Below are positions 1-30,000 of a DNA stretch of 64,000 nucleotides, in pieces. Source of the DNA: Rhynchobatus australiae (taxonomy: Eukaryota); the NCBI GenBank assembly GCA_034780895.1, contig JAUZTB010000087.1:30731204-30795203 (forward strand), written 5' to 3'. Numbering within the stretch: position 1 is the stretch's first letter; each line of letters opens with the position of its first letter. Made by a program: the position numbers.

Positions 1-3000
1 TGCGTCTGTACTAGGATTAGTTTCCAACTACACAGCATGTCTGAGAACAAGAAAAAGGACACAGGAAAAAAGAAGGGTGAAAGACGTGGTAAAGGAAAGG
101 GAAGAAAACAAAAAGGTAATTAATTTGAAACATGTCTCTTTAATGTCAGTGAAGGAACTAATATATTGCAATTCCTCTCACTGCTTTTTAAGGTTGCACC
201 CTTTTGCAAAAGTGGACATGTTACTGCATATCAAATCGTTTTGATTCTATGAAAATTGGATGTGTTTTAGCATGCAAAACATGCATGTAACACTTGTGTT
301 ATTTTGACAGCCTTGAGAGATAAAGCTTGCAACATATAAAATGGTAATTTTTTGTAAAGGTCTTAGTGGAATATTTAAGTAGCTGTTTACACAAAACACA
401 TTCTGAAAATTACTCTCTTGAACTGGAAGAAAAGGAAATAAATGCAGCACATGCTGTTCAGTTCGCAAAGATGTTTGTTGAAATGTGGGCAGAGTTCCCT
501 CTTTAAGAGTAATCTGACACACTGTAAAGTCCATGTTCCATTGTAGTATCTGGAAAGAGAGCTTGGCTCAAGTACATGGATTTATTTNNNNNNNNNNNNN
601 NNNNNNNNNNNNNNNNNNNNNNNNNNNNNNNNNACTTTATTTAAAAAAAACTTGAGTGTAAAATGTCACTCTGAATTCAAGTTAACCTCTTCCACCGTTA
701 TATTGACAAGAACATAATAATTGTAACTTATAATCTCGGTGAAAGTTTGACTTGTAGCTAGTTTCCTTTAGAAGAGTCAGTGTGCTTGAAGGAGGGCAGA
801 TACTGTGTGCATGTTTAAATGTACCATGTCTGCAAAACATCAAGTTAAAGATCTTGCTTTATGTGTTCTTAGCTTCTGTGCTGTTGATGATTTTATAACT
901 ATTTGCTTTCAGATGTTTAAGATAAAGTTTATCAAAGGAATTTTACATTATGTGGTTGAATTTGAACAATATGATTTTTTAGTGATGTGTGATTTTCAAG
1001 CTGAATATATTTTCAAATGCAACGTAATTGATTTAATGGATCACTATTTAGAGAATGCACCTATCCATCTCGGTGTTGATAACTGAACGTGTAACGCCTT
1101 TCTGCATCTAGGTTTACAGAATGCTGTTCTTACTGCTTCACTCTTGGTTAGCAAAGCATCAGTTAAAGTGAATGGATTACATTCTACTTCAGCAGTCCCT
1201 CAGGATTGAAAGTGGCCTCCTTCCACTCAAGCTTTTGGGTTCTGAGGTGACTGATAAGGGACTTGCAAACTCCCCCACATATGGGGCAGGAGATGCCAGA
1301 TGGGACAGGTGGGTGAATAGTTTGTGCTCCTGCTGCTGGGCTCGAGTTTCTCAGTGTCATTTCAAATGCTCCTTGTCCATTCCCAGCAGTCATGGACCTG
1401 GGATTCCCAGTGGTTAACATGTCCACAGGACACATCCAAAGTAATATCATTGTAGGTGTGTAACTGCTCCCAGCCTAGTATCAATACAGCTATGTGGCTG
1501 GTTGCTGGGTGGTAAATGAAACCAGCCCGATGTAGACACACCAATCTCCAAGGGGAAGTACTTGAATTTGGCTGAGATTGACAACTCAGTTAACAGACAG
1601 CCTCTGACCCTCAATGATCCTGCCTATTGGGCTCTAGTGTGCTGACACACTCTATGGTCCTTTCTGTGGCTGTGTGCCATGACTTCAAAAGACTTTAGAT
1701 TATTGAAAATCCAGTCGCATTCAGATTTATTAATCTAGCTGCACCATCTAGTAATAAAATAAGTAAAATGAAGACTCAAAAGTGGATTTGTTGAAAGCAA
1801 GGAAATGTGGTTTCTGTGCCAGGAGATTTTAAAGGAGATCTCAGCCTGCTGTAGTTTCTTGCTTTTGAATCAGCATCTGGTCCTCCTGCTCATATCAACA
1901 TTTTCCCTTTTAATTCCCTCACTGCCAAGCTTGTAGGCCAATTCCATCCCTTGATTCCATGCATAGTATTGAATGCTTGCTAATGTATCCCTAGATGGAG
2001 GTAAGCAATAAAATCTGAAACTCAGTTTGTCTGGTTTATGTCCAAATGCATGACACAAGGCAGTGAGCTTTGTAACAGCTGATATTATCAGCTAAGGTAT
2101 ATGTACTGAAATGAGAGTGTGTGAAAACTCTTAAATGTCAAACGGCTTGCTCACAATAATATTTCTGCTGCCAAAAGTGTCATTGAGAGCAAGACTTCAA
2201 AATGCAAGTTTCTTGCCTATGTCCACAGCCAGAATCAAAATGCAATGCATTAAGGTAACAACAAGGCACCATTCTTGGGTTGTATTCAGAGAAGATGCAC
2301 TTTGTACAGTTATTTGTGATCGTATGCACTCATACAAGTAAGCAGGATTTTGAAATCAAAGTTTTTCTCTGATTTCATCTAGCTATTTACCTGAAATAAC
2401 CTAACTTAATGTGTTCATATTAATTTTGGAACAAATTACTGGTTGAAACTATTGACACTAATCTTTCTTGTTGCTGGTAAACTAGTGCCCAGCAATTGAA
2501 TCCATTTAACGCACACATAAAAAGCAAAATCAGTCAGCAGACATCCCACCCTTTGAGCATTTGGACTGGGAAATCTTTGGGTATCCTTGATCCTAATGCA
2601 GGATTGAAGCATTGTGGATTAGAGGCTGGGAAAAGGGGGGAGAAAAGTACGGTTGGCAGTCAAACAAGGAAGGATAGAAATGGTGTCTGCAATTGCCCTT
2701 GGGCGGAAACAGTAATGGGAAAGGTCTACCTGGGGTGGGGTTGTGAATGGCGGCTCATTTTCTTACAATCCAGCATCTGGAGGTATGCTCTATCAGTACA
2801 CATTGAAGTAGGCACTCTTGATGTTTAGATTTAACAGACCACGGCTGACACTGGTCTGTGTTGCCATTGGGGGAACATTTTGAGGTGGGAACTCAATTAA
2901 ACATTAGAGTCCTATTTCTATATACAGCATCAATAATAACTTTTGGACGTGGGTCCTGGACAAAAATCTTTCTTCCTCTCCCAATAAAATGGGTGATACC

Positions 3001-27000: not shown

Positions 27001-30000
27001 AAAAGATTCATGGTAATATTCCACACGGATAACATTTTCTATTTTTGGAACCATGACAGCAAATTCTATGCATCTGCCCATCACCCACATAGAACTACAT
27101 TCTAGTGNNNNNNNNNNNNNNNNNNNNNNNNNNNNNNNNNNNNNNNNNNNNNNNNNNNNNNNNNNNNNNNNNNNNNNNNNNNNNNNNNNNNNNNNNNNNN
27201 NNNNNNNATATTCTAGGAATTTTAGTTATTTTTGTTGATCGTTATGTAAATTATTCAAGTAATTCAAAATAAACGGTTGGCAGAGCATGGGAACAGGAGT
27301 GATAAAACGCTCGCCTCTAGAGTCATGCAGTTTTTGAGTTCAAGGCCTACTCCAAACTGTATGGAGAATGCTGCACTTCTGGAATTAGATGAAGTGCTAA
27401 ACCAAGGCTCTATGGGTATTGCTCTATTTGTTAAAGTATTCCACAGTGCTAATTGAAGGAAAACAGGACTTTTTTTTCAGATGTCCTAATCAATGTTATT
27501 TTTTTCAATCTGTGCCTCCAGAACAAATGTACTAATTTCTAACCTAATTCTCCCTTTGTGGTGCAATGCTGTGTGCAGGTTAGATCCATATTAGCCTATG
27601 CTACAATAGAGATAATTCACACACTGAAATCTTCCTTTGTTGTCACCAGATTTGAATTGCATCCCCATTATTTACCAAAAATCCTAGGAGAAATTGGACT
27701 TAGAAATCCAATGAGTCAAAAACATGCAGAGGTGTATCACTGGATACAACACTTTTTGAATAACTGTACCCTACATTAAATTACAGTCCTCATTTCTGTT
27801 TCCTACACAGCCTGCTTTTCCTTTACGATAATTTTAAAGGAAAGAAAAATCTAACAAGATGTTTAATGAAGGGTTGATTTGATGCCACGCATATTGCACA
27901 TGCACTGAAATTGAATTNNNNNNNNNNNNNNNNNNNNNNNNNNNNNNNNNNNNNNNNNNNNNNNNNNNNNNNNNNNNNNNNNNNNNNNNNNNTATGGTAT
28001 ACACCAAAGAGATTTTAATACTTTCTCCAGGTTTTCTGTGATTATTGAAGGACCAACTATTGAATTAATTAATTTTGAGTTCTGTATAGTAAATAGCAGA
28101 ATTCATATGTTGCAATTCCCTTTTTTCATACCAAAGTTCTTTGCAACAATGACCTTCTAGAAAATATTCATGCAAACAAACTTCTGCTATTGACAAATAA
28201 GAAATATAAAACCTAAATGAATTTACACCTTTTTCCACATTTGGGATTGATGTTAGGTGGTTTTGGAGCATGATGGACAGACTACGGCCTGTGTGCAGCA
28301 GTTCAAACAGAAAACCACACATGGAAACTCACAGCTGCACCACATCTCCGTACATATAAACCCCCCATTGCATTAGTGATTAGATGCCCATGGATTTTTC
28401 CATAACTCAGGAGCAGCGTCACTTTTTATTCCTTGATTCTTATCATTCTTTGTTCATACTGGTTGCCTGAAATTTGATCAGTATGTGCATAAACTGTGCT
28501 TGCTATTCCCACAGGAAAGACAAACTGTGATTGTTATTCCCCAAAGTGTAATCATGTGCCATTCAAGTCAGTTTACCAGCAGTTCTCCATATGTGTCTCT
28601 TTGTATTAGCAAAATCGATTACTCATCCTTTCTAGCCCAAATGATATATTAAGTGCCTTTTCTTTGCACCCTATTTTGATAATATGCTGATTGAAGAGCA
28701 TATAGCCAGTATGCACCATTGAGTGGAATATTTTGATCTCAAGTAGTTTTTGATGGGAGAACACACTTGCCTGTGCTGCTGGTTAGACTTTAACAGAACT
28801 GACAGCTAAGGTGTTCAGAGACCTGGTTCATCTGCAAGATGTCGAGAAATTCTTGTCAGTTGTGCATCTCTGTAAAAAGGAACAGTGTTCTCAACGAAAG
28901 GAACTACAATATTATATCTCATGGTAAGAAATAGTGCAGTTTACAAAATATTAATTCTTGTTTTCAGCTTATCCTTACTCCATTATGGCAGAAGAAAGAA
29001 ACAAAGACCGACTATTATGTATTTTTGCCATCTTCTATTTCTCTGAATGAAACAGAAACTATAGAGATTGACATACAGTAAATTGTGCAATTTCGCCTAG
29101 TATTTATGATACCTATGTTTTCTGACCTTCTGGATGTAATATTATATTTCAACACATTGCTGATGGCTCAAGACAGGCCTTCTCATACCCAGGCACATCC
29201 TATGCACTGCTTCTCTGTCTCCATTCCTATTAATGCCTCAGGTGAGGATGAAGAAATGCAAAGCCAACTTGGTGGAAATGAGCCAACTCCATCTGAACCT
29301 GCTGTTAAGTATTTTTGTTGTGTCTGTACAGACAGGAGCCAAAAATATCTAAGTTTGGAAAAGATCTGTACCATTCTGATCCTGGCGTTCTTGATTTTCA
29401 CGATAGTGTTCATTGCTGGCACAAAATGGTTTATTGTGAGTAGAAAATATGAGAGTGAACTGCCAAGTTTATTTGATCTAAAAAGGGTTGTGCAGAGCCC
29501 CACTGGCACCCACTTACCTAAAGCATTGCCTGCACTTTTAAATAATGTAGCCTCCGAAAGACCAGCTCTTGAAACTGAGGAAGAAGCTACAACATTTGTA
29601 AATGTTTTCACTTCAAATTTGTTCGAAAGCTCCTCCAGCTTCAGACTTTCCAGTTTCACCATTTCCTCTTCTGCCTCCTCTTCAACTGTGAAGTCACAGT
29701 TACAATCGTCTGTGACAGAGGATTCAACGCAGTCCTTGTCTACTGCAGAGCTCAAGTTGATTTCAGTACAGGAACTCTGTAAGTAATCTCCTATACACTT
29801 CAATATACTAACATTCAGCATTGTTGTTTATTTGTAAGAACAAGGCAAAGAAAGATGTCCAACTGAGTTCTGTTACATTCTCTAATATATTTTAATGATT
29901 CACACATGTTAGATCATTTTTGAATTCAAATTGGCCTCTGCACACTCCAATATTATTATTTCTGTCCTAATTAAACAAAAATTGTTATATTTCTATAGTC

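Follow-up and report, generated by a model that had tools for sequence, protein, structure and literature searches.

Whether the gene for neuregulin 2 (NRG2) can start from a membrane-anchoring first exon like that of NRG1 type III is the question raised by a 64,000-nt stretch of DNA from Rhynchobatus australiae (NCBI GenBank assembly GCA_034780895.1, contig JAUZTB010000087.1; the whole stretch is called the window below). Schwann-cell development and myelination depend on NRG1 type III as the signal from the axon. In the accessible text of PMC9118086, single-pass neuregulins (NRG1 types I and II, NRG2) shed their epidermal growth factor (EGF) domain, whereas dual-pass forms (NRG1 type III, NRG3) keep it tethered and act through cell contact. 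In the window, an exon resembling the one for the cysteine-rich domain (CRD) and transmembrane (TM) segment of NRG1 type III follows the two immunoglobulin (Ig) exons of an NRG2 gene. On the sequence evidence, drawn from one genome and one imperfect relative, we lean towards the view that NRG2 has retained it as an ancestral type III-like alternative first exon, still functional in this cartilaginous fish, the lineage that an earlier, sequence-only reading of the same DNA had in view.

All peptide searches were run exon by exon, and the sequence was read in the same way. It contains one + strand locus with a basic ATG exon (E1), Ig1, Ig2 and the CRD exon, in that order and at the places where the sequence-only reading had put them (Table 1). 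The donor of E1 is aag/GTAATT (GT at 116, phase 1); Ig1 is bounded by the acceptor ...cttcacag/CTG and the donor gaa/GTAAGT at 15542, and Ig2 by ...ttttctacag/AAA and ctg/GTGAGT at 19694. The chain of phases is consistent, since the last G of E1 with the CT of Ig1 gives Ala and AA with A gives Lys at the Ig1/Ig2 junction. The Ig2 donor at 19694 and the CRD donor at 29779 are both in phase 1, as had been noted before. The Pfam I-set model is covered at positions 5-50 of 90 by Ig1 (E 5.1e-10) and at 55-90 of 90 by Ig2 (E 8.2e-8); because these positions are complementary, the two exons are halves of one Ig domain and not two domains. E1 matched no family in the Pfam scan. The open reading frame (ORF) of the CRD exon runs from stop to stop over 29082-29786, with the last exon base at 29778 and further in-frame ATGs at 29106, 29202 and 29256. 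On the + strand, GTRAGT occurs 28 times in 59,481 bases, and three of these are the Ig1, Ig2 and CRD donors. The introns measure approximately 15.3, 4.0 and 9.5 kb; these values, like the order of the contigs, are taken from the scaffold.

The identity of the gene was assessed from the Ig and basic exons. Of 27 candidates for the Ig1 peptide, nine proteins reached E<=0.001, every one from an elasmobranch; eight are named neuregulin 2a or pro-neuregulin-2-like and one is a hypothetical protein of Scyliorhinus torazame, the NRG2 names being automatic NCBI/UniRef names. Ig1 is 98% identical to the Rhinoraja 'neuregulin 2a' and the Narcine NRG2-like protein and 87-92% identical to the others. For Ig2, identity is 95% with the skate model and 92% with three ray models, falling to 77-79% with five shark NRG2 models; the 26 residues of E1 are 92, 84 and 81% identical to the NRG2-like N-termini of Mobula (P0004), S. 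torazame (P0005) and Narcine (P0002), respectively. Annotated elasmobranch isoforms confirm the E1-Ig1-Ig2 order and the junction codons. The elasmobranch NRG2 models have two alternative starts, the short basic MSENKKK exon and a long N-terminus; the latter, carried by the ray models P0001 and P0003, matches Pfam NRG2_N (PF25518) at E 1.7e-41. Downstream of Ig2 they carry a spacer rich in Ala and Thr, then an EGF domain and a TM segment, followed by the Pfam Neuregulin tail. Searches of the PDB could not separate NRG1 from NRG2: with Ig1, no neuregulin appeared among the best 60 of 155 matches, which were generic Ig proteins; the NRG1 Ig chain 7sjl gave 53 bits against the whole Ig domain of the ray protein; and no NRG2 chain, including an NRG2 EGF chain, turned up. 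Judged from the automatic names, the NRG2_N match and the features of mammalian NRG2, the locus belongs to a batoid (skate or ray) and is NRG2, not NRG1, in agreement with the earlier view of its Ig sequence.

The basic first exon had been counted before as a trait of the NRG1 layout, and this part of the earlier reading does not stand. Since the ray and shark NRG2 models start with it and the cloning primer of exon 1C of zebrafish nrg2a apparently encodes its counterpart (MSEGKKKE, against MSENKKKD here; PMC4482254, as far as its available text goes), it is an NRG2 feature that teleosts share, and no sign of NRG1. The same text describes first exons 1A, 1B and 1C of zebrafish nrg2a; 1B is homologous to NRG2 N-termini and corresponds to the long NRG2_N first exon of P0001 and P0003, and 1C, with 37 residues and a putative nuclear localization signal, corresponds to E1. 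The short basic start of NRG2 thus seems, by these sequences, to be conserved from elasmobranchs to teleosts. Mammalian and zebrafish NRG2 have the Ig, EGF and tail architecture in common with the locus; what is new in NRG2 is the CRD-like exon.

Of the NRG2 gene, the window covers no more than the central part of its 5' half. The EGF, TM and cytoplasmic-tail exons were not found in it, either by a scan with an EGF regular expression or by tblastn with five NRG2 models (nothing at E<0.5). The NRG2_N exon gave no tblastn match in the window and is expected upstream of base 1. Because the scans of the window were negative, the downstream NRG2 exons lie either beyond base 64000 or inside gaps such as 33981-34931 and 36171-37154. 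These two gaps, each of about 1 kb and located 4-7 kb downstream of the CRD exon, could hide a small spacer/EGF exon.

Two features of the elasmobranch NRG2 models themselves were also seen. The models P0001-P0009 have two alternative ends of the EGF domain, CPNEFTGDRCQHYVMASFYK and CQPGFFGQRCLETEPLRTYKPDLK, of which CPNEFTGDRCQHYVMASFYK is nearly identical to an NRG1 beta chain in the PDB, and the S. torazame model (P0005) reads past the Ig2 donor into the intron.

Sequence comparison shows the fourth exon to be truly homologous, though divergent, to the CRD/TM exon of NRG1 type III. An exhaustive phmmer search of the CRD exon against 1.84 billion representative proteins (cut-off E<=1e-3) returned nine proteins, namely P0010 at 6.4e-26 and eight nameless ones at 6e-7 to 8e-4, which we take to be NRG1 type III from recognition and from their EGF and Neuregulin domains. 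Four of these eight continue into an EGF domain of the CVNGGECF type, and Pfam finds the Neuregulin tail in P0013, the only one of them so scanned. In the alignment of the ten sequences 14 columns are invariant, including C, V, EK, C, ILA, L, KW, D, Q and P. Identity in the 62-column core between CCVC and QSP is 39-45% for the window against the eight NRG1-type CRDs and 69-95% (mean 83%) among those eight, confirming the earlier remark that this CRD is far more divergent than CRDs are among NRG1s.

In the NRG1 gene the CRD exon stands after Ig2 and before the EGF exon, and the CRD exon of the window has the same strand and relative position. The isoform architecture of NRG1 is given in the available part of PMC5112773. 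The window exon and NRG1 type III (CRD-NRG1, SMDF) have in common an alternative exon after the Ig exons, an N-terminal cytoplasmic stretch, the series CCVC...SEKIC leading into one hydrophobic helix, KW and a juxtamembrane D-KR-Q-P, and a Ser/Thr-rich linker towards the EGF domain. The window exon differs in lying in NRG2 and in a deletion of two residues after CCVC, and its use as a first exon and its tethered signalling are predictions from the sequence.

The coding signal of the exon exceeds chance. Its ORF of 234 codons from stop to stop is the longest of the 6647 N-free ORFs of the window (expected number about 0.006), the next longest on the + strand having 126 codons. From ATG 29163 the exon stayed open in 0 of 5000 dinucleotide shuffles, its first 113 codons in 3 of 5000 and its last 92 codons in 60 of 5000; since the frame is open over these last 92 codons, we think that the frame of the window is the functional one. 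The GTAAGT donor stands 8 nt before the stop of the ORF in the phase of the Ig2 donor, a coincidence with a chance of about 0.005. Two alternative donors, ttt/GTAAAT at 29598 and the internal GTGAGT at 29436, were rejected, both being in phase 0 and unfit for the EGF exon.

The predicted form of the product agrees with a membrane-anchored protein. The maximum of the Kyte-Doolittle profile over 19 residues (2.91) lies at residues 68-86, over ICTILILAFLIFTIVFIAG, and AlphaFold gives a single helix at 64-97, with a predicted local distance difference test (pLDDT) score of about 90 for residues 71-90 and a mean of 52. The remainder outside the helix is predicted to be disordered, with pLDDT below 50 in the linker, and Ser and Thr make up 32% of the part after the helix. 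These models suggest one hydrophobic membrane-spanning segment in the CRD exon.

The one relative, P0010, is an orthologous ORF of 209 residues on a 2791-nt contig; it belongs to a cluster of three member sequences and shares ATG 29163. From this ATG to CCVC it is identical to the window at 34 of 51 residues (67%) and over the core at 43 of 62 (69%), with no gap or stop in either part. Upstream of the ATG, by comparison, identity is down to 25 of 58 aligned positions (43%); a stop and gaps occur there, and the frame changes from one high-scoring segment pair to the other. Such a step in identity at the shared ATG is what coding constraint would give, and the flank before it is a candidate 5' untranslated region or promoter-proximal region. 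ATG 29163 is also a better start than that at 29256, because the latter is Ile in P0010. The helix is hydrophobic in the window and in P0010 alike. As to conservation of the ORF in a relative, which had been proposed earlier as a check, P0010 keeps the ATG and 113 codons open, but it is not open through to the donor.

A number of observations weigh against a functional exon. P0010 has CYVH in place of CCVC and keeps three of the seven NRG1 cysteine positions, and the window itself keeps four of the seven aligned cysteines (CCVC, KIC), with Y, F and F at the rest. The last ten residues of P0010 correspond to the +2 frame of the window (7/10 identical) and end at the TAA at 29543-29545; a net one-base indel between the two sequences lies near 29513-29516, and the stop of P0010 falls about 78 codons before the equivalent of the window donor. 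Because of this frameshift into a stop, the exon in the source of P0010 would be unable to reach the EGF exon in frame, and from its sequence it looks broken, unless that sequence carries an error. Pfam gave no family for the CRD exon or for P0010, and recognition of the exon by Atlas was low, with sub-threshold leads only. The exonic side of the donor, tct, is non-consensus, and ATG 29163 has C at -3. The EGF exon lies outside the readable sequence of the window, so that the CRD-EGF join is not open to inspection there.

The protein searches for a known CRD-NRG2 isoform point in the same direction. No protein longer than 305 residues with this CRD was found in a word-index search, where none of the 1749 candidates reached E<=0.01; such a search says little when it returns nothing among long proteins, although a near-identical CRD isoform of a skate or ray would still have been expected to match, because it would have many words in common with the query. 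A search of proteins of 95-366 residues with a two-sequence profile returned P0010 only, and the NCBI isoform sets of skate, ray and shark NRG2 in the searched database seem to be without this CRD. No paper on a CRD or type III NRG2 was found in literature searched without most subscription journals. Judged by title or the opening of the abstract, no paper on neuregulin 2, cysteine-rich domains and type III deals with a CRD-NRG2; none on sharks, myelin and type III was relevant by title; and among the papers listed for chondrichthyans and neuregulin, none contains the word neuregulin. The terms 'CRD', 'cysteine-rich' and 'type III' do not occur in the available text of the zebrafish nrg2a paper (PMC4482254), and NRG2 is classed as single-pass, with NRG1 type III and NRG3 as the only dual-pass forms, in that of PMC9118086.

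These findings bring in the main rival explanation, a relic: a type III-like exon that NRG2 inherited from an ancestor and now uses marginally or not at all, drifting, by chance still intact here and already broken in the source of P0010. Current use of the exon in this species is the point on which the functional and the relic readings part. A drifting exon would account for the absence of an annotated CRD-NRG2 isoform from the databases, for the loss of two of the three CCVC cysteines and the frameshift in P0010, for the four remaining cysteines and the low identity of the core to NRG1 here, and for the weak exonic side of the donor. It accounts less well for a 205-codon ORF that survives in none of 5000 shuffles and whose linker alone does so in 60, for a donor in the right phase at the end of that ORF, for an identity that rises exactly at the shared ATG and is followed by 113 codons without an indel or stop in either sequence, and for a helix that is hydrophobic in both. 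A long-dead exon would not be expected to stay alignable with NRG1. Because an idle exon would no longer align in this way, the exon has presumably been in use for most of the time since NRG1 and NRG2 split. We therefore hold the relic to be unlikely, while regarding it as a serious competitor, and keep the functional first exon as the favoured reading.

The assembly gaps bear on both the frames and the position of the exons. The window has 30 runs of N, of which 15 (999 N in total) lie between E1 and the CRD exon, and none of them falls within an exon, which settles the question of frame attached to the sequence-only reading. The gaps closest to the Ig exons end 76 nt upstream of the Ig1 acceptor and 136 nt upstream of that of Ig2, and the CRD exon is 1170 and 2161 nt away from the gaps that bound its 3.9-kb contig (27993-31939). 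The exon frames are safe, because no gap touches an exon or a splice site. The contig with the CRD exon is, however, bounded by gaps on both sides (75 and 335 N), with six more between it and Ig2, so that its location within the locus depends on the scaffold, a further point against the favoured reading.

The contig could accordingly have come from another neuregulin locus, NRG1 or NRG3, and have been misplaced in the NRG2 intron during scaffolding. Besides the gaps, this explanation could draw on the nearest neuregulin-named lead from Atlas, 'pro-neuregulin-3-like', which was listed second with a score of 0.84, below the evidence level of the tool, and is a lead only. In the available text of PMC9118086, NRG3 is a dual-pass neuregulin with an N-terminal TM domain, no Ig domain and contact signalling; it is a separate gene without Ig exons, and the likeness to the predicted product drawn here is one of architecture. 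Against a misplaced NRG3 contig, the exhaustive search gave no NRG3-like protein at E<=1e-3. Against an NRG1 origin stands the divergence of the core from NRG1 CRDs that are themselves conserved from teleosts to a mammal-like sequence, whereas the NRG1 of a slowly evolving cartilaginous fish should be near other NRG1 CRDs. The two flanking gaps are estimated sizes and not the 100-N placeholder, and the strand and position of the exon are exactly as the NRG1 layout predicts. A scaffolding artefact is thus, in our judgement, improbable.

Some of the gaps may be only apparent. At three of the nine 100-N gaps (10649-10748, 17949-18048 and 35542-35641) an identical word of 19, 11 and 32 bases, respectively, stands on both edges, suggesting overlapping contig ends and a true gap of nil, and the remaining 27 gaps have no common edge word.

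A further explanation concerns the way in which the exon is spliced. An acceptor-like site inside the CRD ORF (...cctattaatgcctcag/GTG) combines a polypyrimidine tract and AG with phase 1, the phase that fits the Ig2 donor, and P0010 conserves the surrounding PINASGEDEE stretch. Used as an acceptor, it would make an internal cassette exon that gives Ig-CRD-EGF proteins. The conservation of coding type, however, starts upstream of the site, at ATG 29163, with 17 of the 26 intervening residues identical when counted by eye; a match in phase has a chance of 1 in 3; and with an Ig domain ahead of a signal-anchor helix, either it or the EGF domain would be expected to end up on the cytoplasmic side. 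We consider an internal cassette exon very improbable. As an observation apart, either this site or the consensus GTGAGT within the part encoding the helix could yield minor splice forms.

For the favoured reading, we infer promoter use, splicing to the EGF exon, topology and signalling mode as follows. The CRD exon would have its own transcription start, and translation from ATG 29163 would yield a cytoplasmic stretch of about 67 residues, a single hydrophobic helix (residues ~64-92) and the Ser/Thr-rich linker. Through the phase-1 donor at 29779 the exon could be joined to the same spacer/EGF exon as Ig2, with a junction codon T+CN encoding Ser. Lacking an Ig domain, the resulting proNRG2 would be dual-pass, and after juxtamembrane cleavage its EGF domain would be kept tethered by the N-terminal helix. 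By analogy with NRG1 type III and NRG3, the tethered EGF domain may then signal to ErbB receptors by contact.

The wider claim is that cartilaginous fishes express a dual-pass tethered 'type III' NRG2 and that the pre-duplication neuregulin then had the full set of first exons; we put this tentatively, at slightly under an even chance. If it is true, the ancestral set would have consisted of a long NRG2_N/type II-like, a basic type I-like and a CRD type III exon. NRG1 would have kept all three, bony-vertebrate NRG2 would have lost the CRD exon, a concrete case of exon loss, and NRG3 would have kept only the membrane-anchored form. The choice between single-pass and dual-pass forms, made through the promoter, would then be an ancestral trait of the gene rather than something that NRG1 acquired later. 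According to the available text of PMC2834686, NRG1, NRG2 and NRG3 lie in paralogous chromosome regions, which is compatible with their origin by genome duplication. In skates, contact signalling from axon to glia could be divided between NRG1-III and NRG2-III, and the oldest living myelinated lineage would have a second candidate for contact-dependent ErbB signalling. The sequence-only reading had spoken of a second tethered neuregulin; it would be the third, NRG3 being dual-pass as well (PMC9118086, available text). The tethered form of neuregulin 2 suggested here should be of interest to specialists in neuregulins and in myelin evolution.

Table 1. Positions, in window coordinates, of the exons of the NRG2 locus and of other features.
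Feature	Position	Strand	Description
E1, short basic alternative first exon	37..115	+	ATG 37; 79 nt; 26 codons + 1 base; MSENKKKD...RKQK
Ig1, first half of single I-set Ig domain	15379..15541	+	163 nt; phase 1 in, phase 2 out
Ig2, second half of Ig-like domain	19575..19693	+	119 nt; phase 1 out
Upstream flank of CRD exon	28921..29162	+	aligns with P0010; non-coding here; tblastn, two high-scoring segment pairs
CRD/TM-like exon	29163..29778	+	205 codons + 1 base; donor tct/GTAAGT at 29779; phase 1 out
Conserved core of CRD exon, residues 52-113	29316..29501	+	CCVC, SxEKIC, helix ICTILILAFLIFTIVFIAG-TKWFIV, juxtamembrane D-x-KR-x-x-Q-x-P
Ser/Thr-rich linker	29502..29777	+	92 codons; not conserved with P0010; would join spacer/EGF exon
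Acceptor-like site	29240-29241	+	polypyrimidine tract + AG (...cctattaatgcctcag/GTG); inside CRD ORF; phase 1
Consensus GTGAGT	29436-29441	+	within helix-coding part; phase 0; P0010 has N, not S, there
Antisense ORF	29186-29827	-	214 codons; second longest in window; no Pfam family
ORF fragment	35001-35318	+	Pfam scan: no family
ORF fragment	35380-35757	+	Pfam scan: no family
ORF fragment	49858-50112	-	Pfam scan: no family
ORF fragment	52538-52768	-	Pfam scan: no family

Among the remaining features of the window, Rfam, tRNA and tandem-repeat scans gave nothing relevant. The antisense ORF opposite the CRD exon is probably a by-product of the coding frame on the other strand, as it occupies the only antisense frame that is nearly free of stops. 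The four ORF fragments resemble what we take to be the C-terminal parts of CR1/L2-type reverse transcriptases of long interspersed nuclear elements, presumably common in shark and ray genomes.

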